A stretch of 64,000 bases of DNA from Candidatus Eiseniibacteriota bacterium (GTDB lineage: Bacteria > Eisenbacteria > RBG-16-71-46), in the NCBI GenBank assembly GCA_963744995.1, contig CAVUWA010000002.1, positions 763,302 through 827,301 of the forward strand. The letters run 5' to 3'. The stretch's first letter is position 1, and every line of letters begins with the position of its first letter. The notes under the pieces are model-generated. The model was given only the letters and a program-made list of their open reading frames with translations. It did no database searches and was not told where the DNA came from. This document shows, piece after piece, positions 49,422 to 61,623 of this stretch. The position numbers and the translations under genes are program-made.

Positions 49422-49518
49422 TGACATGTAGAATGGGGCCCCGTCACGGAGGTGAGGTGCGCGCGAGGTGCACCGCAGGCTCCCGGCGATGCACCCATGC
49501 CCGGATGGGCCGGAAGGA

Positions 49519-51105
49519 ATGCCCCGTATCCGTCTCACGATGATGCTTGCCGCGGCCGCGGTTCTGCTCACGACCACCGGCGATCGGCTCGCGCCGGGGC
49601 ACGGGCCCGACGGCGTGCACGCCGTGCGCTCGGGCGCTCCGGCGGGGCTGCCCGTGTTCGCGCTGTTCGGCTGGGTGAGCCCGCCGGCCGACTTCGCCGA
49701 CAGCGCGCGCTACGCGGAGATGGCCGCCGCGGGGCTCAACCTCGCACTGCCCGCGTTCGACGACTCCGGTGGACTCGCCCCGCCCGGCGCGCAGCTGGAC
49801 CTCGCGGAAGCGAACGGACTGCGCGTCATACTCTGGGACCCGCGCTTCGAGAAGCTGGCCGACCCGGGCTACGATCCGGACTCGCTGCTCGATCGCATCG
49901 TCGCCGACTACCGGGATCATCCGGGGCTCGCGGGCTACTACCTGGGTGACGAGCCGCAGCCGTCCCTGCTGCCGTTGCTGGCCCGGGTGCACGCGGGCCT
50001 GCGCGCGCGCGACCCCGCGCACCCCGGCTGGAACAACCTGTTCGGCCGGCAGGCCTACGGCAGCGCGGATGCGCTCGAAGCGGCGCTGCGCGCCTACGCC
50101 GACAGCGTCGCGCCCGCGGTGCTGAGCGACGACCACTACGACTTCACGGAGAGCGGCGATCGGGGCCATTTCATCGAGAACGTGACGCGGCTCGCCGCGG
50201 TCGCACGCGCGCACGGCATTCCGTTCTGGTGCGTGGTGCAGCTCACCCAGCACGCGATATTCCGCGCGCTCACGCCGGGCGAGCTGCGCTGGCAGGTGTC
50301 GCATCTGCTCGCGTACGGCGCGCGCGGTGTCGGCTACTTCACCTACTGGACCCCGGCCGCGGACCCGTACTGGAACTGGCAGCCGGCGGTGATCGACACC
50401 GACGGCACGCGCACGTCGTGGTTCGACGTCCTCGCGGCCTTCAATCCGTACGTGCGTGCGGCCGGCGAGCGGCTCGCGGCCCTCGCCTGGATCACCACGC
50501 AGCATGCGGGCAGCGTGCCGGCAGGCGGGCAGGCGTTCGCGCCGGACGACTGGGTGTCGGCGGTCGAGGGGCGTGCGGCGATCGGCGAATTCGCCGATGC
50601 GCAGGGCGGTCGCCGCGTCGTCGTCGCGAACAGCGACTCGGCGTCGGCGCAGCAGATCGCCCTGACGTTCCCGGGCGCCGACTCGGTGGCGTGGCTCCTG
50701 CCGCCGGGGACGTCGTGGAGCGCCGCACCGGCCGGCGTCGTCCCGGGCGGCCTGCGCGTCACCATGACGATCGAGGCCGGTTCGTTCCGGTTGCTGCGGA
50801 TCTTCGGTGCGGACGGGGGCAGCGGCGCGAGCGGCACGCGTCCGGGCCTCGATCTCTCGCCCAACCCCGCGCGCGGCGCGTGCCGCATGGCCGTAGCCGC
50901 CGCGGTGGGTGGCGCGACGCTCGAGATCATCGACGCCGGCGGCCGGCGCATATGGGCGCGCGCGCTCGCACCCGGACGCTCGGTGGTCGAATGGCACGGC
51001 GAGACCGACGGCGGCGGCCGCGCCCCCGGCGGGCTCTACTTCGCCCGCATCCGCGACGAGCGCGGCACCGCCGTGCGGCGGCTGGCCTGGCTCGGGGCGA
51101 ACTGA
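49519..51105 (+). CDS. Secreted TIM-barrel glycoside-hydrolase-like protein with a C-terminal FlgD-Ig/Por-type sorting domain
   Basis: GGAAGG RBS; signal peptide MPRIRLTMMLAAAAVLLTT. ...YYLGDEP... C-terminal tail ...GLDLSPNPARGACRMAV...GLYFARIRDERGTAVRRLAWL. Confidence 0.65.
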   Translation: MPRIRLTMMLAAAAVLLTTTGDRLAPGHGPDGVHAVRSGAPAGLPVFALFGWVSPPADFADSARYAEMAAAGLNLALPAFDDSGGLAPPGAQLDLAEANGLRVILWDPRFEKLADPGYDPDSLLDRIVADYRDHPGLAGYYLGDEPQPSLLPLLARVHAGLRARDPAHPGWNNLFGRQAYGSADALEAALRAYADSVAPAVLSDDHYDFTESGDRGHFIENVTRLAAVARAHGIPFWCVVQLTQHAIFRALTPGELRWQVSHLLAYGARGVGYFTYWTPAADPYWNWQPAVIDTDGTRTSWFDVLAAFNPYVRAAGERLAALAWITTQHAGSVPAGGQAFAPDDWVSAVEGRAAIGEFADAQGGRRVVVANSDSASAQQIALTFPGADSVAWLLPPGTSWSAAPAGVVPGGLRVTMTIEAGSFRLLRIFGADGGSGASGTRPGLDLSPNPARGACRMAVAAAVGGATLEIIDAGGRRIWARALAPGRSVVEWHGETDGGGRAPGGLYFARIRDERGTAVRRLAWLGAN

Positions 51106-51794
51106 TGGCGAAGGCGCCCTCGACCGCGGCCATCGCAAAACGCATCGTCGCCTGCGAGAAGTGCGAGCGGCTGCGCGAGTGGTGCACACGCGTGGCGCGC
51201 GAGAAACGCCCCATGTACGCGCACGAAACCTACTGGGGGCGGCCGGTGCCGGGCTTCGGCGATCCGCGCGCACGGCTGCTGATCGTGGGGCTCGCCCCGG
51301 CGGCGCACGGCGCGAACCGCACCGGGCGCATGTTCACCGGCGATTCGAGCGGCGACTGGCTGTACGAAGCGCTGCACCGCTACGGCTTCGCCAGCCGGCC
51401 GGACTCCGTGTCGCGCCACGACGGCATGCGACTCACCGACTGCTACGTCACCGCGGCGGTGCGCTGCGCACCGCCCGGCAACAAGCCCGTGCGCGAGGAG
51501 TTCGACGCCTGCCGCCCGTACCTCGAGGCCGAGATCCGCGCGCTCACCCGCGTGCGCGTGGTGCTGGCGCTCGGGCGGATCGCGCACGAATCGTGGCTCC
51601 GCGCTTCGGGCTGGTGGCTCAGGACCACGCCGCGCGAGCGGCCGGCGTTCGCGCACGGGCGCGTGGCCCGGCTCTCCGACGGCGTGACGCTGGTGAGTTC
51701 CTACCACCCGAGCCGCCAGAACACCAACACCGGCACACTGACGCACAAGATGTGGTACGCCGCGTTCGAGAAGGCGCGCGGCGCGATGCGCTAA
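51105..51794 (+). CDS. Uracil-DNA glycosylase superfamily protein with a 4Fe-4S cluster; motif A is GLAPAAHG (family 5/UDGb-like rather than family 4 GEAPG)
   Basis: CEKCERL...C cysteines, ...LIVGLAPAAHGANRTGRMFTGDSSG..., motif B ...SSYHPSRQN. Confidence 0.85.
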   Translation: MAKAPSTAAIAKRIVACEKCERLREWCTRVAREKRPMYAHETYWGRPVPGFGDPRARLLIVGLAPAAHGANRTGRMFTGDSSGDWLYEALHRYGFASRPDSVSRHDGMRLTDCYVTAAVRCAPPGNKPVREEFDACRPYLEAEIRALTRVRVVLALGRIAHESWLRASGWWLRTTPRERPAFAHGRVARLSDGVTLVSSYHPSRQNTNTGTLTHKMWYAAFEKARGAMR

Positions 51795-51834: not shown

Positions 51835-54015
51835 TCACGGGGCCGCGGATTTCGGCAGCCCCCAGATCTGCTGAAGCACGAAGTCCACCACCTTCGTGCA
51901 CTGTGCCTTCTGCAGGTTCCAGAGGTCGAAGCCGCTGGTGACCACCCGCGTCCCGTCGGCGCCGTGGTAATAGGTCATCGTGACGTTCTCGGGATTGGTG
52001 GAGGGCAGGCCCGGGCCCACCGCCCGATAGAGCGTATCGAGCGTGCTCGCGGTGTCGGGCATGCCCGGCACCATGCTGACGTCCTCGAGCACCTCGTTCG
52101 GTTGGCTCAGGAATTCGAAGTCGAGCGAGTGGTAGTAGAGAAAGAAGGCCTGCCCGGTGCGCGTGGGTGGCAGCGGATCGGTGGCGAGGGTCTTGAGCGA
52201 CAGCGTCGGCGGCAGCAGCGCGTAGTCGGGGGCCATCGGCCAGCCGCCCACGGCGCGCGCCGAACGGATCATCGTCGCCTGCGCGCGGGTCGCGTCGTAA
52301 TCCGAGCGCCAGCCGGTGGCCTCGTAATAGAAGCCGCCCGGGTGGAGCCCCTGCGGCGTCGCCGCCTGCGCCGTGCCGCCCCCCAGCAGCCACAGCCGGC
52401 CCCCCTGGCCGACGTACGCCGCCAGCGCGTTGATCACGCCGCCCGAGTTCATCACCCGCAGCGACGTCCGGTCGTGGCGCCCGTTGTTGAGCGCGCTCAG
52501 TGCATCGACGATCCAGATCACGTGACGGTAGGTGCTGAGCGTCGTGAAGCTGAACACGTCGTCGGTCGTGCCGAGCGTGTCGTACGCGTAGCCGGCGAAC
52601 AGGCCGGGTGGCGTGAGCGTACCGGCGGGCAGGCAACGCCAGGGCACGTTGCCGCGCGCATAGAGGAATGTGTCCAGCTCCGCCGCAGTCGGCCAGTAGC
52701 CGGAGGCCGGCAGCGGGCAGCCGCCCGGGCCAGCCTGGTCCGGGAGCAACCGGGTATCGTCGACGATCAGCAGATCGCGCGACATGGCCGCGCCGAGCAC
52801 GCGGGTCCTCACGATCCCGAGGCTGCGCAGGCCGAGGTCGTCGCTCGCCTCCACGTAGAAGCGGTGCTCCTCGCCGGCCGGGAACGGACCGACTTCGGCG
52901 GTGAGCGTGAGCGCGCTCGGCGTGCTCCAGTGGCCCACGTCGGTTTCCTCGTCGCTGCGGGGCGTCTCGTCGCTGACGTCGCCGTCCAGGCGCCAGCGAT
53001 AGGCGACCACGGCGCTGCCGGCATTGGGCACCGCGAACCAGCTGATCCGAACCGTGTGGTCGGGCAGCACGTCGAGAGGGATTTCGGCGCGCGGGTCGAG
53101 CGTGTAGCCGCCGCTCGGGTAGGTGTAGCGGAAGTAGTCGTTGTAGAGCGTGAACGTCGGGCCGATCGTCGCCGCGAGGCTCACTTTGAAGCGCAGCACG
53201 TTGGTGTTGAGCGAAAAGACCGGCGAATACGCGCCCGCCTCGTCGATCGCCACGACGACGAACACGTAGGTGGCGCCCGGGGTCAGGTTCGTGAAGTGCA
53301 CGAGCGGACGGTCGCCCGGCGTCGAATCCCATCCGGCGAACGCCGGCGCGAAGTAGCGCCTGAGCGAATCGGGATCGCTGATCGCGACCGACTGCGGGAA
53401 CGACGAGGACGACGTGAGCAGCAGGTACTTGTAGGCGACCGGCGCCTTCGAGTTCACGCCGTCCGGATCGGTGCCGGTCCAGTGCAGCTCGATCGACGAG
53501 GACAGGTTGGCCGGGAGCAGGGCGTTCGGGATCGGGGTCGTGATGATCACCGACGGCGCGACCGTGCGTGTGAAGAACGCCCGCGTCTCGGGCACCGAGG
53601 CCAGCCCCTGGCGGTCGAAGGCCTTGATCAGGAACACGTGGAAGGCGACCGCCTGGCCCGCGGCGCCGCTCGGGTCCGGCTCGTCGGAGCGGAAGACGAG
53701 GCGCGTCTCGTGATCTTCCGTGCGGACCCAGGCGGTATCGTCCGGCGCCGGATCCACCGCGTATTCGAAGTGGTCGATCGCGCCGTCCGGGTCGTACGCG
53801 AACCACTCCAGCGTGTACGCGTACGTGTAGGGTACGGTGGAGCTGGCAGGCGCGTGCTCGAGCTCGATCACCGGGCGCTGGTTGGGAACCAGCATTCCGG
53901 CGGGGCGCTTCACGCAGGCACCCGCCGCCCAGGCGAGCGCCCCTGCGGCGAGCACGGCGGGCAGGGCGTGCCGCAGGCGCAACGGCGCGGGCCGGGCACG
54001 CTCTCGCGCGCTCAT
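51835..54015 (-). CDS. Large predicted lipoprotein with FN3/Ig-like beta-sandwich repeats (third gene of a coupled three-gene operon)
   Basis: Signal peptide plus ...LAWAAGAC. Repeated ...W.G.D.DG... beta-sandwich segments. ATG overlaps the upstream stop (ATGA). Confidence 0.7.
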   Translation of the reverse strand: MSARERARPAPLRLRHALPAVLAAGALAWAAGACVKRPAGMLVPNQRPVIELEHAPASSTVPYTYAYTLEWFAYDPDGAIDHFEYAVDPAPDDTAWVRTEDHETRLVFRSDEPDPSGAAGQAVAFHVFLIKAFDRQGLASVPETRAFFTRTVAPSVIITTPIPNALLPANLSSSIELHWTGTDPDGVNSKAPVAYKYLLLTSSSSFPQSVAISDPDSLRRYFAPAFAGWDSTPGDRPLVHFTNLTPGATYVFVVVAIDEAGAYSPVFSLNTNVLRFKVSLAATIGPTFTLYNDYFRYTYPSGGYTLDPRAEIPLDVLPDHTVRISWFAVPNAGSAVVAYRWRLDGDVSDETPRSDEETDVGHWSTPSALTLTAEVGPFPAGEEHRFYVEASDDLGLRSLGIVRTRVLGAAMSRDLLIVDDTRLLPDQAGPGGCPLPASGYWPTAAELDTFLYARGNVPWRCLPAGTLTPPGLFAGYAYDTLGTTDDVFSFTTLSTYRHVIWIVDALSALNNGRHDRTSLRVMNSGGVINALAAYVGQGGRLWLLGGGTAQAATPQGLHPGGFYYEATGWRSDYDATRAQATMIRSARAVGGWPMAPDYALLPPTLSLKTLATDPLPPTRTGQAFFLYYHSLDFEFLSQPNEVLEDVSMVPGMPDTASTLDTLYRAVGPGLPSTNPENVTMTYYHGADGTRVVTSGFDLWNLQKAQCTKVVDFVLQQIWGLPKSAAP

Positions 54016-55289
54016 GGACGGCGCCCCGCGATCAGGTCGAACGCGTTGCGGCGATAGATGTAGACGACCAGCCTGGGCTGTCGCGATGGGTCGGAGGTCG
54101 TGGGGGAGGCCCAGCCGAAGTTGGAGTCGGCATCGAGGCGGTAGCCGAAGCGCGCCCTCCCGCGCATGCGCGACTCGAGGTGCGAGGCGAGGCGCGGCGA
54201 ATGGAACCGCACCCGATTGCCCGCCATCACTTCACCGATCGCGAGCGGCGAGGCAGTGGGGTCGTCGTAGGGCGGCCCCGGGTAACCGATGCCGCATGCC
54301 ATCCATGCACCCTCGGTGCCGCTGATCGTGAGCCTGCGCCCGTTCGGGTTGGAGCCCGCCGACGAAGGCGTGAGGACGAGGACCGCGTCCGCGAGCCGCA
54401 GGTCGTCGCCGTACCCGCTCAGCTCCCAGTCCATCGCACCGTTGTAGGAGGGCCCGCAACCCACGGTCGCGCTGAAGCAGCTCCGGACATCGCCGAAGTT
54501 CGACACGTGTCGCACCGAGGCCCACTGCGAGCACACCAGTGTCAGCGAGTCGACCGGCAGTCCCGTCGAGAGCGTCCCGAAGCGCCAGACCGGACCCTCG
54601 GCCACTTCGCCCGTGGACAGATTCGTCGCTCTCACCGACCAGTAGTGCGTCTCACCCAGCGTCCAGGCCGGGTCGGGAGCATAGGTGGCGAAGCCCGTCG
54701 CGGCGACCGCGGGCGCCGTGCGGGCCGCGACCGACGCCGAGTCGGAGCTTTCGAAGATCTCGTAGCGGATCGTACCGGCGGTGGGCTCGGTGGAGTCCCA
54801 CGCGAGCGGCACGAACGCCGACTCGTCCACCGTGCCGGCTGCGGGCGAGGGATGCGCCGGACGCCGCACGCCGTTGGTCCTGAACTGCCAGAAGAACGGC
54901 TCGAGCGCGGCGCCGTCCGCGGCGCGCACCCCGTCGCCGAAGCTCACCGTGTGAGTGCGCAGCAGCTCGAGCAGGGCCTGCGGCTCGATGTGCACGCGCC
55001 GCCGCGCAGGCTCCCAGGTGATCGCGATCGGGATCCGCCGCGTATCGCGCTTGAGGAAGATGCGATCGGGGCCGAGCGTCGCAGGGTCCAGGTCGCGATC
55101 GAAGTCGGCCCAGATGTCGGTCTCGGCGAGCACGCCGGTCGAGCGGCTCGCCGGCATGAGGCCCGTCACCAGCGCCGGCGGCGCTTCTTCCGGGCCGGCG
55201 AGATCCGCGGCGTGGTGCCGGGCGCAGCCGCCGAGCGCGACGGCGAGCGCGAATGCAAGCGCCGAAGTCCGGATCGAAGGCGCGCTCAT
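54012..55289 (-). CDS. Predicted lipoprotein with Ig-like domains (middle gene)
   Basis: MSAPSIRTSALAFALAVALGGC lipobox. ATGA overlaps on both sides. The ORF-track N-terminal extension is rejected. Confidence 0.7.
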   Translation of the reverse strand: MSAPSIRTSALAFALAVALGGCARHHAADLAGPEEAPPALVTGLMPASRSTGVLAETDIWADFDRDLDPATLGPDRIFLKRDTRRIPIAITWEPARRRVHIEPQALLELLRTHTVSFGDGVRAADGAALEPFFWQFRTNGVRRPAHPSPAAGTVDESAFVPLAWDSTEPTAGTIRYEIFESSDSASVAARTAPAVAATGFATYAPDPAWTLGETHYWSVRATNLSTGEVAEGPVWRFGTLSTGLPVDSLTLVCSQWASVRHVSNFGDVRSCFSATVGCGPSYNGAMDWELSGYGDDLRLADAVLVLTPSSAGSNPNGRRLTISGTEGAWMACGIGYPGPPYDDPTASPLAIGEVMAGNRVRFHSPRLASHLESRMRGRARFGYRLDADSNFGWASPTTSDPSRQPRLVVYIYRRNAFDLIAGRRP

Positions 55290-57667
55290 CGGATCACCAC
55301 GAACTTGCCGCGCTGGGTGCCGAACGGGGAGTCCACCGTGAACAGGTAGATCCCCGATTCCACCTCCTGGCCGTTGCGCGAGACCAGGTCCCACGCGGCT
55401 TCGCCGGCGCCCGCGCGGCCGTCGTGGTGGATCACCTGCACCAGATCGCCGGCGACGGTCCAGATCTTGAGCGTGGCCTCGGCCTTCGGCATGCCCATGA
55501 AGTCGATGTGGCGGGTGCGGATGTCGCCGCTCACCGGCGGGCGCTCCCAGGCGGCCGAGGCGCGGAACGGGTTCGGCACCACCCACACCCCGCGACCCGA
55601 CGCGATCGCCTCCACGCGCGGGGTCACGCGCTCGTCGAACGAGGCGAGCAGCGCGCTCTCGAGCGGCGTGTGCAGGAAGCTGCCGTTCGGCTGGCGGCTC
55701 ACGTAGTCGTACATCGAGGTGACGACGTAGACGTAGTCGAAGCCGTTGAGCGGCGTGTCGTCGACGAACCGGTAGTGGCCCGGGGGATAGAGCTTCTTCT
55801 CGAACAGGATGCGCTCGTAGTCGACCGTGGAGTCGATCGTGGCAGTGAGTGCGGCGGCGCCGTCGAGCGGATCGTCGCTGAACACGCGGCGGATGGACCA
55901 CTGGCGGCGCTCCGGGAGCAGGGCGCCGCGACCGCTCCAGTCGTCGATCCGGTAGAGCCGGTATCCGAGGAAGCGCGACTCACGCGAGCCGTACTGACCG
56001 CCGGCAAGGAGCACCTCGGGCCGGTTGTCCCACTCGATCGTCACCCTGTGGTCGCCGGGGGTGACCCGCCAGCCGGGCGGCGGTGGGACTGCGCCGGGAT
56101 CGGTCCAGTGCAGGTGCGTCTCGCGTCCGCCGAAACCGGTGCACGGATCGCAGTCGGCGTCGGTCCAGATGCAGCTGTCTGCGGTGTAGGTGACCGCAGG
56201 GCCCGTGAACTCGCAACCGGGGAACTTGGTGGTGTTGTAGCAGTGTGGATCCCATTCGAACGTCACGCCCGGCGGCGCCGAGATACAGGACTCGTGACCA
56301 TTCAGACCCGACTCGCCCGAGTACCAGACCGTCGAGTCGGCCGTCTCGATGTCCGGGAGTAGATCAGCGAGCACCCCATCGTGATGCCGCAGCGCATCGG
56401 TCCCCACGGCGTCCACGCTGTCGGCGGCCGGGGCGACGATCAGCGCCGCCGAGAACGTGATCGACTGACCCGGTTCGAGCCTTGCGAACGGGCCGCACGA
56501 GACCAGCGCCACGTAGTCCGCGCCGTCGTCTTCGTCCGGCGCCTGCGTGAGCTGCCCGGCGAGCGCCGCATAGCGAGCCAGATCGGTCGTCGGCACACCA
56601 CCCTGCCCGGGTGGACGGTCCCTCGCGAAAATCAGGTTGCGGAACGACACACGGCTCGGCGCGCGCGCGTAACGGGCGGCGGGCGGGATCAGGCCGAGCG
56701 GATCGGTGGTGTGATCGAGTCCGATGACCGCGATTCGCGCCGGCGCGGATGATGAGGCGTCGCCGACCACCAGCGCGCGGCCGGTCACGGTCCGGATGCA
56801 CGGTTCGGGCGGCGGGACGCCAGGACCGGGGACGCACTTGATCACGTCCCGCCGCGGGCCTTCCCACGTGATGGTGTTGATCCCGAGTCCGTCGTTCACC
56901 GAGAATCCCCACGTCGCGCGCCCGATCCGGTCGTTGATGTGGCCGGACGGATCCTCGCGGCGCCGCGAGTCGAGGTCGGCATAGAGACCCACGTAGACGT
57001 CGGTCAGCGTCTCGCTGGAGTGGTTGGTGATGGTGTACTTCAACGCCGCCCAGCGATCGTACCCGGGGCGTCCCCAGCCGAGGACCTCCTGGTGCACCGA
57101 CAACCCGAGCGGGACGTGATTCTCGACGCCGGTGCTGAAACGCACCGCCTCCGGCTGGTCGTCGGTGTAATCGGCGGCGAGCAGCTGATCGGCGGCCAGA
57201 CCGATGTCCTCGTCCACCTCGCCGTCGTGGTCGTCGTCTCGACCGTTCAGGGTCTCTTCGTCGATCGCGCCGTCGCCGTCGTCGTCCACCAGCCACAGGC
57301 TGCCGAGCCGCCCGCGCCTCGCCTCGACCACCCGGTCGCTCGGGTCCAGCGTCGGCCGCCATTCGAGGAGCGGGTCGCCGGAGACGCGGATCACCCCGTC
57401 GGCGTTGCGCGCGCCCACCCACAGCGAAGCGTAGTTCAGCATCTCGTAGCCGGAGTAGGCGGGGTATTCGAGCGACGGGTCGAACGAACGACCTTCGGAG
57501 AAGAACGCGTTGCCGACGATGCCGGCGTTGGTCACGCGCATGCGGAAGGCGCCGACGTCCAGCACGGGACCCTTGTCCCCGATGTCTAGCACTGCGAATG
57601 CGCGGGCGGGAAACAGGGTGAAAAGGATGCACAGCGCGAAGGTGAATCGGCGCGTCGGCAGCTTCAA
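55286..57667 (-). CDS. Large secreted protein with Asp-rich Ca2+-binding loops, a Cys-rich module and a C-terminal FlgD-Ig/Por-type sorting domain (first gene)
   Basis: DDDGDGAIDEETLNGRDDDHDGEVDED; ...CISAPPGVTFEWDPHCYNTTKFPGCEFTG...CDPCTGFGG. Tail VWVVPNPFRASAAW...GIYLFTVDS...KFVVIR. Probable TTG start (LKLPTRRFTFALCILFTLFPARAFA) after AGGAG. Uncertain by about 80 nt. Confidence 0.7.
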   Translation of the reverse strand: MKLPTRRFTFALCILFTLFPARAFAVLDIGDKGPVLDVGAFRMRVTNAGIVGNAFFSEGRSFDPSLEYPAYSGYEMLNYASLWVGARNADGVIRVSGDPLLEWRPTLDPSDRVVEARRGRLGSLWLVDDDGDGAIDEETLNGRDDDHDGEVDEDIGLAADQLLAADYTDDQPEAVRFSTGVENHVPLGLSVHQEVLGWGRPGYDRWAALKYTITNHSSETLTDVYVGLYADLDSRRREDPSGHINDRIGRATWGFSVNDGLGINTITWEGPRRDVIKCVPGPGVPPPEPCIRTVTGRALVVGDASSSAPARIAVIGLDHTTDPLGLIPPAARYARAPSRVSFRNLIFARDRPPGQGGVPTTDLARYAALAGQLTQAPDEDDGADYVALVSCGPFARLEPGQSITFSAALIVAPAADSVDAVGTDALRHHDGVLADLLPDIETADSTVWYSGESGLNGHESCISAPPGVTFEWDPHCYNTTKFPGCEFTGPAVTYTADSCIWTDADCDPCTGFGGRETHLHWTDPGAVPPPPGWRVTPGDHRVTIEWDNRPEVLLAGGQYGSRESRFLGYRLYRIDDWSGRGALLPERRQWSIRRVFSDDPLDGAAALTATIDSTVDYERILFEKKLYPPGHYRFVDDTPLNGFDYVYVVTSMYDYVSRQPNGSFLHTPLESALLASFDERVTPRVEAIASGRGVWVVPNPFRASAAWERPPVSGDIRTRHIDFMGMPKAEATLKIWTVAGDLVQVIHHDGRAGAGEAAWDLVSRNGQEVESGIYLFTVDSPFGTQRGKFVVIR

Positions 57668-57844
57668 AGAGGACTCACTCCTGGGGGAGTCTGTGGGAGG
57701 GAAAACGTGCGAACGAGAATACCACCAACCGCGCCGCCGCCGTGGCACATCTGCGCGGCCCGCGGCTCACGGCGTGCCGCCGTAACGAGTTCGGACTTTG
57801 CGCTTGACGCCGGGCGCGACTGCGCACAAGGTAGGCGCAGACAT

Positions 57845-58095
57845 CTTCCGCGGTGCCCGCAAACAGCGGGGTAATAGGGAAGGGGGTGCGATTCCCCCAC
57901 GGTCCCGCCACTGTGATGGGTTCCCGGAGTCTCATGCGCCACTGATCCCCTGGATCGGGAAGGCGAGGCTCCGACGGCCCTCAGTCAGGAAACCTGCCCG
58001 GAAGCCATCGCTCGCAGCGCTTCGTGAGAAGGCGTTGAGGCGTTCGGCGCTCCCAGGGCTCCGTCGCTTCGCCCCCGCGAAGACGGAGCTTTTCG
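57845..58095 (+). ncRNA. Cobalamin (B12) riboswitch with an intrinsic-terminator expression platform
   Basis: ggtgcccgcaaacagcggggtaatagggaagggggtgcgattcccc...gccactgtgatgg...gggaaggc...gccctcagtcaggaaacctgcccgg contains the conserved B12-box. It is followed by the hairpin ccgtcgcttcgc-cccc-gcgaagacgg plus agcuuuucg, which overlaps the btuB RBS. Confidence 0.85.
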
Positions 58096-58096
58096 A

Positions 58097-60199
58097 TTGG
58101 GCGCGGGCAACGCCGTGATCGTCGCACTCGTTCTCCTCATGTCTCTGGCGCTCGCGCACGACGCGGACGCGGCGCGCACGGCGCCGTTCGCCGAGGTCCG
58201 CCGCGATGCGCGGGGAGCCGCGGTGGCCGACTCCGCCGCCCCGCCGGCGCCGAACTCCGCCGCGCTCGAGACAAGGCTCGACTCGGTAGTGGTGCTGCCC
58301 GAGGTGGTGGTCGAGCGCGAACGGGCGCTCGACGCCGCGCGGCGCCGGCGCCCGACGGGTTTCGTCACCGAGCTGTCCCCGGACGCCGTGCCGCGCACGT
58401 ACGAGACGGCGGCCGACCTCTTGCGTCAGGCGGCCGGCGTGCACGTCGTCCAGTACGGCGGGCTCGGCGCGTTCAGCACCGTGTCGCTGCGCGGCGCGCC
58501 GGCGGGGCAGGTCGCCGTGTACGTGGATGGCGTGCCCATGCAGTCGGCGGCGCGGACCGTGGTGAATCTCGCCGAGCTGCCGATGGGTTCGATCGAGACG
58601 ATCGAGGTCTATCGCGGTGGCGCCCCGCTGTCGCTCGGGCCCGGGCGTCCGGGCGGCGCGATCCAGCTCACCACGGCGATCGGCGCCGGCGCGAGCGCGC
58701 GGGTGACGCGCGGCTCGTTCGACACGTGGGACGTGGCCGCGCGTGCCGGGGCGACGCGCGGCGCGTTCGCCGCCGCCGTACACGGGGGCTATCAGGGTTC
58801 GGACGGCGACTACCGCTATCTGAACGACAACGGCACGCCGTTCAACCCCGGTGACGACGTCGAGGCCGTGCGCGTGAACAACCGCTTCGACATGGCGCAC
58901 GGTGGCGCGCGGCTCGAATGGCGGCCGGACGACCGCTGGCGCGTGCGGGCGGCGGGGAAAATCGAGCGGCAGGGGCAGGGGTTCCCCGGGCTCGGCTCGA
59001 TCCCGGCGCTCGACGCGCGCGCGCGGCTGCTCTCGGGCGACGTGCAGTCGTCGATCGAGCGATGGTTTTCCGGCGGCGGGCGCGTCGAGTGGTCGGGACT
59101 CTGGCAGGCGGACCGGCGTCGCTTCGGGGATCCGATGGGCCGGCTCGGGCTCGGGCGGCACCTGACCGACGATCGCTTTCGCGCGATCCAGACCGCGCTG
59201 CACCTGGAGACGCCGGAGCGTTTCGACGTGCGCCTCGAAGGCGGCGTGTCGCTCCGGGGCGAGCGCGCCACGCTGCGCGATGCGCTGGACGGGCGGCCGG
59301 ATCCGCCGCCGAGCACGCGGCGCACGCAGAGCGCCCGGGCGGGGGTGCGCTGGAGGCCGGGCGCGGGGCCGGTGCTGCTGGTCGCGGACCAGCGCTGGGA
59401 CCGGTCGAGCGATCGCCTGCATGCGGCGACGCCCGGACCCGCAGGGGGGCTCGAGACCGTGCGCGAGACGCGCTCGCCGGAACTCGGTGCGCGGCTCATG
59501 CTCGGGGGCGGCGTCGAGCTGCGCGCGAACTGGGCGCAGGCCGAACGCGTACCCGACTTCCTCGAACTGTTCGGCGATCAGGGCGGCGTGAGCGGGAACC
59601 CGTCGCTGCGGCCCGAGCGCGTCGTGAGCCGTGACGCCGGCCTCGCCTGGTCGGGCCGCATGCCGCTCGTCCCGCGTGCTTCGCTCGCGTGGGCGCACTT
59701 CGAATCGAACGGCGAGGACTTCATCGTCTTCGTCAGACAGTCGCAGACCGCGGTCAAGGCGCAGAACGTCGCGCGCGCACGGATCCGCGGCGAAGAACTC
59801 TCGCTGGCGGGAGAGTTGCCGCTGGGCTTCGAGCTGGCCGCCGCGCTGACGTGGCAATCCGCGATCGACCAGGGCGACGTGCCGTTCTGGCGCGGCCACC
59901 GCCTGCCGCAGCGCCCCGGCCGGGAGTCGTACGCACGACTCGGCTGGAAGGGCGGCGTGCTGCGCGCCTCGCTCGAAGGCCGCTTCGTCGGCGACAGCTA
60001 CCGCGACCGCGCCAACCAGCAGCGCGTGCCGAGCCGCACGCTGGTCGACGCGTCATTTTCGTGGACGCCCGGCGACGGTCCGTTCCGCTTCACGCTCGAA
60101 GGCCGCAACCTCGGCGACCGCCGCGTGGCCGACGTCGCCGGCTACCCGCTGCCCGGGCGCAGCCTGCTCGCTTCCATCGACTGGCACGCGGGCCGCTGA
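58097..60199 (+). CDS. btuB: TonB-dependent receptor, probable cobalamin transporter
   Basis: TTG start after a GGAG RBS. Signal peptide; plug ...VVVLPEVVVE..., ...IETIEVYRGGAPLSLG... Lies directly downstream of the B12 riboswitch. Confidence 0.85.
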   Translation: MGAGNAVIVALVLLMSLALAHDADAARTAPFAEVRRDARGAAVADSAAPPAPNSAALETRLDSVVVLPEVVVERERALDAARRRRPTGFVTELSPDAVPRTYETAADLLRQAAGVHVVQYGGLGAFSTVSLRGAPAGQVAVYVDGVPMQSAARTVVNLAELPMGSIETIEVYRGGAPLSLGPGRPGGAIQLTTAIGAGASARVTRGSFDTWDVAARAGATRGAFAAAVHGGYQGSDGDYRYLNDNGTPFNPGDDVEAVRVNNRFDMAHGGARLEWRPDDRWRVRAAGKIERQGQGFPGLGSIPALDARARLLSGDVQSSIERWFSGGGRVEWSGLWQADRRRFGDPMGRLGLGRHLTDDRFRAIQTALHLETPERFDVRLEGGVSLRGERATLRDALDGRPDPPPSTRRTQSARAGVRWRPGAGPVLLVADQRWDRSSDRLHAATPGPAGGLETVRETRSPELGARLMLGGGVELRANWAQAERVPDFLELFGDQGGVSGNPSLRPERVVSRDAGLAWSGRMPLVPRASLAWAHFESNGEDFIVFVRQSQTAVKAQNVARARIRGEELSLAGELPLGFELAAALTWQSAIDQGDVPFWRGHRLPQRPGRESYARLGWKGGVLRASLEGRFVGDSYRDRANQQRVPSRTLVDASFSWTPGDGPFRFTLEGRNLGDRRVADVAGYPLPGRSLLASIDWHAGR

Positions 60200-60222
60200 C
60201 GGCACGCGCTTCCGGAGGTTCC

Positions 60223-61623
60223 ATGCATCCCGCAGGACTGCTCAGGCCGGTTCTCTTCGCCCTGCTGATCGCCGCCACCCCCGTCGCCGCCGCGGAGACC
60301 ACGGCGTACGTGGTCACCACCGACTTCGCGACCGGCAACATGGCGTCGATCTCGCTCGACACGCACGCGGTCGCCGCGAACGTGGCCAGCGTCCATTCCG
60401 ACGCGCGCGCGCGCTGGCACGACGGGCTGCTGTACGTGGTCAACCGCTACGGCCAGGACAACGTCCAGGTGGTGGACCCCGCACAGGGCTTCGCCACGAT
60501 CCGTCAGTTCTCGACCGGGCCGGGCTCGAACCCGCACGACATCGCCTTCATCAGTCCGACGAAGGCCTATGTGACGCGCTTCGAACTCGGCGACCTGCTG
60601 ATCGTGAACCCGCAGAACGGGGCCACGCTCGGGGTGATCCCGCTCGGTGCGTTCGCCGACGCCGACGGCATCCCCGAAATGGACCAGATGGTCCGCGTCG
60701 GCACGCGCGTGTTCGTGAGCCTCGAGCGGCTCGACCGCAACAACGGTTTCGTGCCCGCCGACTCGAGCCTGGTGGCGGTGATCGACACGCAGGCCGACAC
60801 CGTGATCGACGCGAACCCGCTGCAGGCCGGAATCCAGGCGATCCGCCTGCAGGGCACGCAGCCGTTCACCGAGTTCGCGTTCGACAAACCCACGTCGCGG
60901 CTGCTGATCGGCTGTGTCGGGAATTTCGGCGTGATGGACGGCGGCATCGAGCGCATCGATCCGGTGAATCTCGTGAGCGGCGGGTTCGCAATCAGCGAGG
61001 CGCAGCTCGGCGGCGACGTCAACGACCTCGTGTGGGACGGCCCCGCGCGCTCGTTCGCGATCGTCAGCGACGCCTCCTACAACACGCTGCTGGTCGCCTT
61101 CGACGCGAACGCCGGCGCGGTCACCGACACCGTGTTCGCGCCGGGCGGCTACAGCCTGGCCGACGCCGCGCTCGACGACCGCGGCGAGCTGTACGTCGCG
61201 AAGAACGATTTCAGCGCCCCCGGCGTGTTCGTGTTCGATGCCGCGACGGGTGCCGCGCTCGCCGGTCCCCTGAATACCGGGCTGCCGCCGTTCCAGATCG
61301 TGTTCGACGAGGAGAACGGGCAGGTGGCTTCGGTGCCGCGCGCCGGCGGCATCGCGCTCGCGCCGCCGTGGCCGAACCCGGCATCGCGGGAGGTGCAGTT
61401 CTCGGTCGCGCTGGAGCAGGCCGGCGAGCTCGACGTCGGTGTCTACGACGCCGCCGGTCGGCGCGTCCGCACCCTGTTCGCAGGTTCCGCCGCGGCGGGG
61501 ATCCGCGCACTGCGCTGGGATCTCACGAGCGCCGGCGGCCGCCGTGCCCCCGCGGGGCTCTACTGGCTGAGCGTCGCGGGCGCGGGCGCGCGGCGGACGC
61601 GGCGGGTCGTCGTGCTGCCGTAG
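60223..61623 (+). CDS. Secreted beta-propeller-like protein with a C-terminal FlgD-Ig/Por-type sorting domain; candidate surface B12-binding (BtuG-like) accessory protein
   Basis: GGAGGTT RBS; signal peptide MHPAGLLRPVLFALLIAATPVAAA. Repeated ...Y(V/A)...D...V blades. Tail ...PPWPNPASREVQFSV...GLYWLSV...RRVVVLP. Starts 24 nt after btuB. Confidence 0.75.
   Translation: MHPAGLLRPVLFALLIAATPVAAAETTAYVVTTDFATGNMASISLDTHAVAANVASVHSDARARWHDGLLYVVNRYGQDNVQVVDPAQGFATIRQFSTGPGSNPHDIAFISPTKAYVTRFELGDLLIVNPQNGATLGVIPLGAFADADGIPEMDQMVRVGTRVFVSLERLDRNNGFVPADSSLVAVIDTQADTVIDANPLQAGIQAIRLQGTQPFTEFAFDKPTSRLLIGCVGNFGVMDGGIERIDPVNLVSGGFAISEAQLGGDVNDLVWDGPARSFAIVSDASYNTLLVAFDANAGAVTDTVFAPGGYSLADAALDDRGELYVAKNDFSAPGVFVFDAATGAALAGPLNTGLPPFQIVFDEENGQVASVPRAGGIALAPPWPNPASREVQFSVALEQAGELDVGVYDAAGRRVRTLFAGSAAAGIRALRWDLTSAGGRRAPAGLYWLSVAGAGARRTRRVVVLP

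Follow-up and report, generated by a model that had tools for sequence, protein, structure and literature searches.

A coupled Eisenbacteria operon for two lipoproteins and a secreted protein that ends in a T9SS-type domain, and its modular relatives

This work concerns three adjacent genes on the minus strand of a 64,000-nucleotide stretch of Candidatus Eiseniibacteriota DNA (contig CAVUWA010000002.1, positions 763,302 to 827,301), the whole of which we call the window. We call the genes A, B and C in order of transcription. They form a translationally coupled operon whose stop/start overlaps are under selection. A is a secreted protein that ends in a type IX secretion system (T9SS)-type C-terminal domain (CTD), B and C are lipoproteins, and the operon belongs to a large family in which relatives of A are encoded beside several alternative sets of partners. 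We tentatively favor the idea that the three products make up a glycan-handling surface complex that depends on a T9SS, with A retained by its CTD and held in a fixed ratio to B and C.

Eisenbacteria are a widespread uncultured phylum of soils and sediments, and their envelope is almost without functional annotation. We found no literature linking them with the T9SS or mentioning GWxTD, a domain that appears below. Surface proteins that have a T9SS tail and outer-membrane partners of their own are a known kind of system. Undescribed, however, are the families to which these proteins belong, the lipoproteins as partners, the modularity of the partner sets and a CTD so unusually well conserved.

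An operon with selected overlaps

The features of the operon are listed here, with lengths in amino acids (aa) and nucleotides (nt).

55286-57667, minus: gene A, 793 aa; its secreted product consists of a supersandwich, a linker rich in Cys, an FN3-like domain and the T9SS-type CTD
57593-57667, minus: signal peptide of A, residues 1-25, predicted cleavage AFA/V (...FPARAFA|V), read from sequence, with a helix at 5-17 in the model
56378-57589, minus: predicted beta-supersandwich of A, galactose-mutarotase-like, residues 27-430
57206-57286, minus: two acidic loops of the DxDxDG type in A, residues 128-154, inserted in the supersandwich, presumed Ca2+-binding
56093-56377, minus: Cys-rich connector of A, residues 431-525, with C461, C476, C499, C506 and C509
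55598-56092, minus: FN3-like beta-sandwich of A, residues 526-690, from the strand pattern of the model
55289-55597, minus: T9SS-type CTD of A (the A-type CTD), residues 691-793, predicted seven-strand beta-sandwich
55286-55289, minus: ATGA overlap of the A stop and the B start
54012-55289, minus: gene B, 425 aa, lipoprotein; Big_5 domain at residues 37-138, FN3-like segment at about 140-240, unassigned C-terminal domain at about 245-425
54012-54015, minus: ATGA overlap, 4 nt, of the B stop and the C start
51835-54015, minus: gene C, 726 aa, lipoprotein
52786-53874, minus: about three FN3/Ig-like beta-sandwich domains of C, residues 48-410, from the strand pattern of the model
51838-52779, minus: predicted class I glutamine-amidotransferase/ThuA-like alpha/beta domain of C, residues 413-726 (the last 314)

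Third-position GC in A, B and C is about 0.88-0.89 in a window of 70% GC, as expected for real genes. A starts with the TTG at 57667, and an AGGAG ribosome-binding site stands 10 nt before it. The preliminary description of this DNA, made by a model from the letters, named three minus-strand genes of these sizes, including the 793-aa A, and the open reading frames, the codon-position GC and the TTG start all agree with it. It also called the proteins very large, which they are not; all three are mid-sized.

Both junctions are 4-nt ATGA overlaps, as had been claimed, and they read ...ccgATGAgcg... and ...ccATGAgcg.... Among related loci, 25/30 A>B junctions, 2/2 B>C junctions, 6/10 A>C junctions and 16/17 junctions between E and F, two genes of a paralogous cluster described below, could form an NTGA overlap in an open frame. 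The ATGA consists of a last Arg codon, CGA, and the TGA stop. CGA makes up 4.4% of the Arg codons in 15 window genes, and CGA-TGA terminates 37 of 91 A homologs (41%), roughly tenfold above CGA usage. Because so rare a codon precedes TGA in 41% of the A homologs, the overlaps are not a chance by-product and the overlap itself is selected. The operon is translationally coupled, although the "obligate co-translation" of the preliminary description exceeds what an overlap can show.

Homologs and partner sets

A word-indexed search with A gave 307 matches, and the 120 matches listed are 48-70% identical, nearly all of them over most of the length. The same search gave 784 matches for C and 5 for B (34-40% identity); B has so few because it diverges fast. 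With exhaustive phmmer against a library clustered at 50% identity, A reached 2418 clusters at E<=0.001, of which 806 pass E<=1e-10 and 132 pass E<=1e-30. Since there are 806 clusters at the middle threshold and several copies per genome, the A family is probably a main surface system of the Eisenbacteria. The 1.24-Mb contig that carries the window copies also has paralogs of A and C (P0029, P0126). The named A and C homologs come from Candidatus Eisenbacteria (Eiseniibacteriota), not from Gemmatimonadota, the taxon the preliminary description had in mind, and their source names are all "hypothetical protein" or similarly uninformative.

We analyzed 97 loci with hidden Markov models of the families. 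They include 57 A genes of the close subfamily, 50 of which have enough downstream sequence to judge, and B lies downstream of A in 29 of these 50. C abuts a close-subfamily A in 14 cases: downstream on the same strand in 5, downstream and convergent in 2, upstream and divergent in 6, upstream and co-directional in 1. It also stands beside an A of the distant subfamily in 5 loci, C-C-A-C-A arrays included. Three loci have exactly the order A>B>C, namely the window, L003 (Candidatus Eisenbacteria RBG_16_71_46) and L097, and two more have the order C<A>B>. Distance clustering groups the A proteins by partner arrangement and places the three A>B>C copies together. Because these three cluster, the triad is one conserved orthologous subgroup in a modular paralogous family. 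It is kept as a unit in L003 and L097, so the preliminary description survives a test that it named itself, that a triad not conserved as a unit elsewhere would refute it.

The usual continuation after A-B is a pair of weak paralogs of about 360 aa, E (secreted) and F (a lipoprotein), both of which carry a CxxC motif and an FG-GAP-like DVNGDG loop. This A-B-E-F cluster is found in L008-L011, L018, L024, L027, L039, L055 and L073. In L008-L011 its conserved housekeeping neighbors are TonB_C, HAD and YjeF genes together with a helicase of the DEAD/MrfA type. Behind other A copies comes a small secreted protein rich in Cys. The arrangement is modular, with A-B and A-C recurring as pairs and A-B-C as one conserved combination among several. 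The large family of A falls into paralogous subgroups that differ in their partners, be it B-C, B-E-F, C alone or the small Cys-rich protein. We considered whether E and F, or a 327-aa Cys-rich neighbor, might be divergent PorV-like barrels and rejected this; they give no PorV match and lack the terminal aromatic residue of the PorV/PorQ-like proteins, F being a lipoprotein and E carrying a signal peptide. The idea that C is a fusion of E and F was also rejected, as there is no similarity.

Loci reached through C homologs bear on which part of A the C lipoprotein follows. All 5 of them have an adjacent co-directional gene that ends in an A-type CTD, and in 3 of the 5 this gene, G (354-393 aa), resembles A in the CTD alone. 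Because G and A have only the CTD in common, C follows the type of CTD and not the passenger.

Two further arrangements involve C. In L068 (2424-15055) and L063 (7567-14641), which belong to lineages of about 60% GC, A and C alternate in C-C-A-C-A and C-A-C arrays, which suggests repeated tandem duplication of the A-C pair. L012, L013 and L096 share a syntenic X-C-G cluster, where X (627-693 aa) has a first domain in common with C and G has the A-type CTD. Upstream of it L013 and L096 both have a 1450-aa FlgD_ig protein, and downstream they have Asparaginase_II, one gene for a Peptidase_S8 and two for M16 peptidases.

The C-terminal domain and the distant branch

We modeled A and C with AlphaFold2 on family alignments, and the model of A is confident (pLDDT 91.2, pTM 0.91). 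Its CTD has strands at residues 695-697, 721-724, 730-737, 742-749, 756-759, 772-780 and 783-791, reaching the extreme C-terminus. A protein exported this way should have a Sec signal peptide and a seven-strand beta-sandwich of 80-100 aa at its very end, and A is predicted to have both. In T9SS CTDs the loop that joins strands 3 and 4 has a conserved Gly and there is a C-terminal basic residue, while identities are generally very low (PMC11285876). Judged by eye, A carries this motif. G740 and D741 (the G-D in ...IWTVAGDLV...) are invariant or near-invariant, and the protein ends ...GKFVVIR, with a basic residue in the last strand.

The profile matches tell more for the family than for the single protein. 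TIGR04183 has no match in window A, and the match to NCBIfam PorZ is confined to the CTD, where residues 723-777 score 21.5 bits (E 6.7e-5) and the cut-off is 260. Among 25 CTDs of the family, FlgD_ig matches weakly in 20, CHU_C in 6 and Por_Secre_tail in 4. In 62 more distant members, FlgD_ig is found in 15 (best E 3e-12) and Por_Secre_tail in 7 (best E 7e-9). A profile of the CTD run against PDB sequences has its best matches in the CTDs of PorU (E 0.077) and PorZ, and Foldseek aligns A with PorU 6za2 over 298 columns (E 2.4e-5). This evidence at the level of the family is consistent with a T9SS-type CTD. The preliminary description spoke of a Por-type C-terminal domain and of T9SS cargo; we agree on the domain and regard the status of A as cargo as uncertain. 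The CTD is also the best-conserved part of A, at 69% identity in the close family compared with 54% for the whole protein.

The distant A subfamily is 28-35% identical over the full length, and most of its loci share a fixed arrangement. Upstream of A is a TonB-receptor-like gene with a CarboxypepD_reg N-domain, Plug and barrel (15 loci). The gene after A is a bona fide PorV/PorQ family protein (18 loci; 195 bits for NF033709, whose cut-off is 90) that ends ...LRFLF or ...LNFSY, and further downstream comes a GWxTD-domain protein (16 loci; TIGR04514, 76 bits). The loci with this four-gene cluster include L004, L005, L065, L076, L079-L081, L088, L091 and L092. The distant-branch contigs L005 and L006 are labeled Eisenbacteria and have PorV/PorQ family genes. 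The flanks of the distant-branch loci hold only unrelated housekeeping genes. Because no part of A is better conserved than the CTD and distant members adjoin a PorV/PorQ gene, a retained docking CTD fits better than a cleaved export tag.

One contig of this branch, L004 (DATJGS010000042.1), is labeled Candidatus Saccharimonadaceae yet carries the Eisenbacteria-type four-gene cluster. It is probably a mis-binned contig.

The bodies of the three proteins

Searches of Pfam, NCBIfam and PDB sequences with A, B, C and the family profiles gave no match to the protein bodies, the Big_5 domain of B excepted, which supports the earlier statement that none of the three matches a characterized family. 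Residues 27-430 of A are predicted to have the fold of solved galactose mutarotase-like supersandwich proteins. Peptidase_C25 is absent from A in the Pfam scan, and neither a beta-propeller nor an (alpha/alpha)6 catalytic domain is present in the model.

The two acidic loops read DDDGDGAIDEE...DDDHDGEVDED. Their residues D129, D130, D132, E137, D144, D146, D148, D152, E153 and D154 are invariant in 49 sequences with identity down to 31%, and the loops are invariant even between subfamilies that share 31-35% identity. Further invariant residues are D169, H184, N215, D231, D233, D246, D322, D362, R365 and D384. In the Cys-rich segment C476, C506 and C509 are invariant and C461 and C499 are at least 90% conserved. 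The signal peptide, the DxDxDG loops and the Cys-rich module had all been picked out before, and the sequence bears them out, as does conservation in the family for the loops and the cysteines. The SCGPF motif and His residues are invariant in the close family. Cys391 of this motif is lost in the distant branch, which makes a PorU-like cysteine transpeptidase unlikely; with a supersandwich as the fold, we also dropped the idea of A as a PorU-like cysteine peptidase.

B has the lipobox LGGC, with Cys22 invariant in 9/9 sequences, and C has AGAC, with Cys34 invariant in 118/118; both lipoboxes were read from the sequence. Big_5 (PF13205) scores 37.1 bits in B against a gathering threshold of 23.6, and the domain is also precomputed for B homologs. 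B and C can be weakly aligned over their N-terminal 180 residues (hhalign probability 62%). The model of C is confident (pLDDT 91.7). In the family alignment residues 413-726 of C have no conserved Cys or His, so the Cys-His-Glu triad is absent from this domain, and we reject C as an active amidotransferase or peptidase. The preliminary description saw two lipobox lipoproteins of Ig/FN3 repeats. It was right about the lipoboxes and the Ig/FN3-like domains, but C has the 314-residue alpha/beta domain as well.

What the operon may do

A would leave the cytoplasm by Sec export and then cross the outer membrane by a T9SS-type route, using its C-terminal seven-strand beta-sandwich. We infer that A, unlike ordinary cargo, probably keeps the CTD and uses it for docking. 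The lipoproteins B and C would sit in the outer membrane, with their amounts held in a fixed ratio to A by the ATGA coupling, C being the partner that tracks the A-type CTD and B the one that tracks the body of A. The supersandwich with its acidic Ca2+-type loops would be the working part, and the complex would most likely capture or handle a surface glycan. In known proteins the supersandwich fold binds or positions carbohydrate, and it is because the body of A has this fold that we propose glycan handling. The preliminary description pictured an unknown surface complex, perhaps an adhesin, S-layer-like or for nutrient capture. A secreted A and two lipoproteins with uncharacterized body families are indeed there, and the complex is something that we too infer.

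How does this compare with known systems? PorU and PorZ of P. gingivalis keep their CTDs and sit on the PorV and PorQ barrels, whose genes are nearby, and PorZ binds the mannan of A-LPS (A-lipopolysaccharide) (PMC8545088). A is like them in having a Sec signal and a C-terminal Ig-like domain followed by a CTD, the CTD best matching those of PorU and PorZ, and the distant A genes are like the PorU-PorV and PorZ-PorQ pairs in having a PorV/PorQ family gene adjoining. However, A has neither the C25 peptidase domain of PorU nor the two seven-bladed beta-propellers of PorZ, but a supersandwich body; it is multi-copy, belongs to another phylum, and in the window it neighbors lipoproteins instead of a barrel. 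Type B CTD proteins are held non-covalently via the CTD region by adjacent PorP/SprF-like partners, as in SprB-SprF and PG1035-PorP-PorE (PMC9143113). The CTD of A is closer to type A/FlgD_ig, and its partners are Ig/FN3 and amidotransferase-like lipoproteins, not beta-barrels. By analogy, the A family would follow the pattern in which a CTD protein has the gene for its own outer-membrane partner beside it.

The bodies compare less closely. A is about 15% identical or lower to the N-terminal supersandwich domains of GH15 glucoamylase, the GH94/GH65 phosphorylases and GH116 and to galactose mutarotase. It has no (alpha/alpha)6 catalytic domain, and it has the inserted pair of acidic Ca-type loops. 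The alpha/beta domain of C resembles ThuA-like and class I glutamine amidotransferase-like proteins (4jqs, 3rht, 1t0b) and the N-domain of GldG/IFT52, but without the conserved triad. Unlike the ThuA and amidotransferase-like proteins, C is lipid-anchored and fused to FN3/Ig-like sandwiches, and it has no match to them at the sequence level.

Several points weigh against a glycan-handling complex held by the CTD of A. The window CTD lies under every curated cut-off, FlgD_ig giving 16.8 bits (20.4 with the CTD alone) against 27. Between subfamilies the CTD is 49% identical against 33%, but CTD peptide patterns served to retrieve the metagenome loci, which inflates this contrast. We found no PorV/PorQ gene near the A loci of the window's subgroup. 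The supersandwich fold is also found in copper amine oxidases and YidC, so glycan binding is not proved. Plain proteins for substrate-specific nutrient capture could also come as several paralogs in a genome, with partners that vary. We know of no cultured member of the Eisenbacteria.

The most probable rival, which we consider doubtful, takes A as ordinary T9SS cargo, a secreted or surface enzyme or binding protein (lyase-like or glycan-binding, for example) with a cleaved CTD tag, B and C as glycan-binding lipoproteins like SusE and SusF, and the paralogs as substrate-specific in the manner of polysaccharide utilization loci. B and C do resemble SusE and SusF as outer-membrane lipoproteins built of tandem Ig/FN3 sandwiches beside other surface proteins; the several copies per genome and their variable partners are as expected, and in the distant branch A directly follows a TonB-receptor-like gene whose CarboxypepD_reg N-domain is that of SusC-type receptors. 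However, sequence similarity to SusE/SusF is lacking, the operon has no SusC/SusD pair, and TonB receptors, SusD-like genes and recognizable carbohydrate-active enzymes are absent from the operon, its orthologs and the other close-subfamily clusters. A cleaved tag would not be expected to be more conserved than the passenger domains, nor would C be expected to track the CTD instead of the passenger. The B-E-F-type cluster sits among housekeeping genes in a conserved arrangement at four loci (L008-L011), which also speaks against it.

If instead A is retained, its anchoring could be more novel than we have proposed, and this we think rather improbable. There may be an undescribed kind of type IX anchoring outside the Bacteroidota, in which the hyper-conserved, uncleaved CTD docks with no LPS exchange, in the close branch on the C lipoprotein with its catalytically dead amidotransferase fold and in the distant branch on a PorV/PorQ barrel together with a GWxTD protein. 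Or A may replace PorZ or PorU in the Eisenbacteria. Were the CTD retained and read by C or a PorV/PorQ barrel, the rules of T9SS surface anchoring would extend beyond the Bacteroidota, and gene neighborhood would become a handle for assigning partners to CTD subtypes. Even if the operon encodes only a glycan-capture module, it defines a new family, known in structural terms, for genome annotation.

It seems unlikely that the A family is instead a secretion accessory, the Eisenbacteria counterpart of the PorU/PorZ surface components of the T9SS attachment complex, whose uncleaved CTD holds it in place while it delivers or attaches a surface glycan to other cargo, with B and C as further components. 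In Bacteroidota porU and porV are adjacent, and the distant A genes mirror this, since a PorV/PorQ family gene lies immediately downstream of them. For the CTD the best matches are PorZ (NCBIfam) and PorU (PDB sequence and Foldseek), the CTD is hyper-conserved, and the body has a fold of the carbohydrate-binding type, which would go with the mannan binding of PorZ. Against this, A has neither a gingipain/C25-like domain nor beta-propellers, Cys391 is not conserved across the family, several paralogs per genome with changing partners would be unusual for a core part of a machine, and the barrel gene is missing beside the window's subgroup. The idea that A, B and C form a Ca2+-stabilized S-layer-like lattice or an adhesin with no ligand processing is very unlikely, for although the acidic Ca-type loops are invariant, Big_5 is a domain typical of S-layer and other surface proteins, the FN3/Ig repeats, fixed-ratio expression and phylum-wide conservation would suit a coat and Foldseek gives a weak match of A to the S-layer protein 7ptp (prob 0.51), nothing points to lattice formation or high abundance, and the conserved polar residues of the supersandwich (H184 to D384 in the list above) suggest a ligand or metal site over packing.

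Flanks of the operon and other observations

The features that border the operon are these.

51105-51794, plus: uracil-DNA-glycosylase-like (UDG-like) gene, convergent, its stop 41 nt from the stop of C
57833-58015, plus: cobalamin riboswitch, 104.7 bits, a boundary outside the operon
58097-60199, plus: TonB-dependent receptor gene, divergent from the operon and driven by the cobalamin riboswitch

The operon is closed on both sides, by the divergent riboswitch before A and by the convergent UDG-like gene after C. Inside it we found no promoter-like site and one terminator-like site, at chance level only. The UDG-like gene encodes about 225 aa with the look of a family 4/5 uracil-DNA glycosylase (GFGDP...SYHPSRQNTNTG). 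It is masked by longer spurious reading frames in a simple list of open reading frames and was missed by the preliminary description.

That description also placed the operon just upstream of a B12-uptake locus, but the B12 locus is transcribed divergently and does not lie downstream. The cobalamin riboswitch is absent from L003, L097 and six other related loci, and the TonB receptor of the window has no counterpart at related loci. Because no cobalamin riboswitch is found near the orthologous triads or the paralogous clusters, the adjacency to B12 genes is coincidental. We reject a functional link to B12 uptake, since the adjacency is not conserved at related loci.

A riboswitch is also found at one related locus: some 1.2 kb downstream of its A>C pair stands a fluoride riboswitch (L030, 8832-8897, minus strand, 59.3 bits), which probably has no connection with the pair.

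On the plus strand of the window, 57833-61623 holds the cobalamin riboswitch, the TonB-dependent receptor gene and then a protein of about 470 aa that ends in a FlgD_ig/T9SS-type CTD (E 1.5e-9). This protein may be a T9SS-exported surface B12-capture protein with a BtuG-like role. Another protein, of 545 aa (49468-51105, plus strand), has a FlgD_ig-type CTD (E 1.8e-4). Since these two join A, the window has three CTD proteins of two flavors, the generic FlgD_ig and the A-type.

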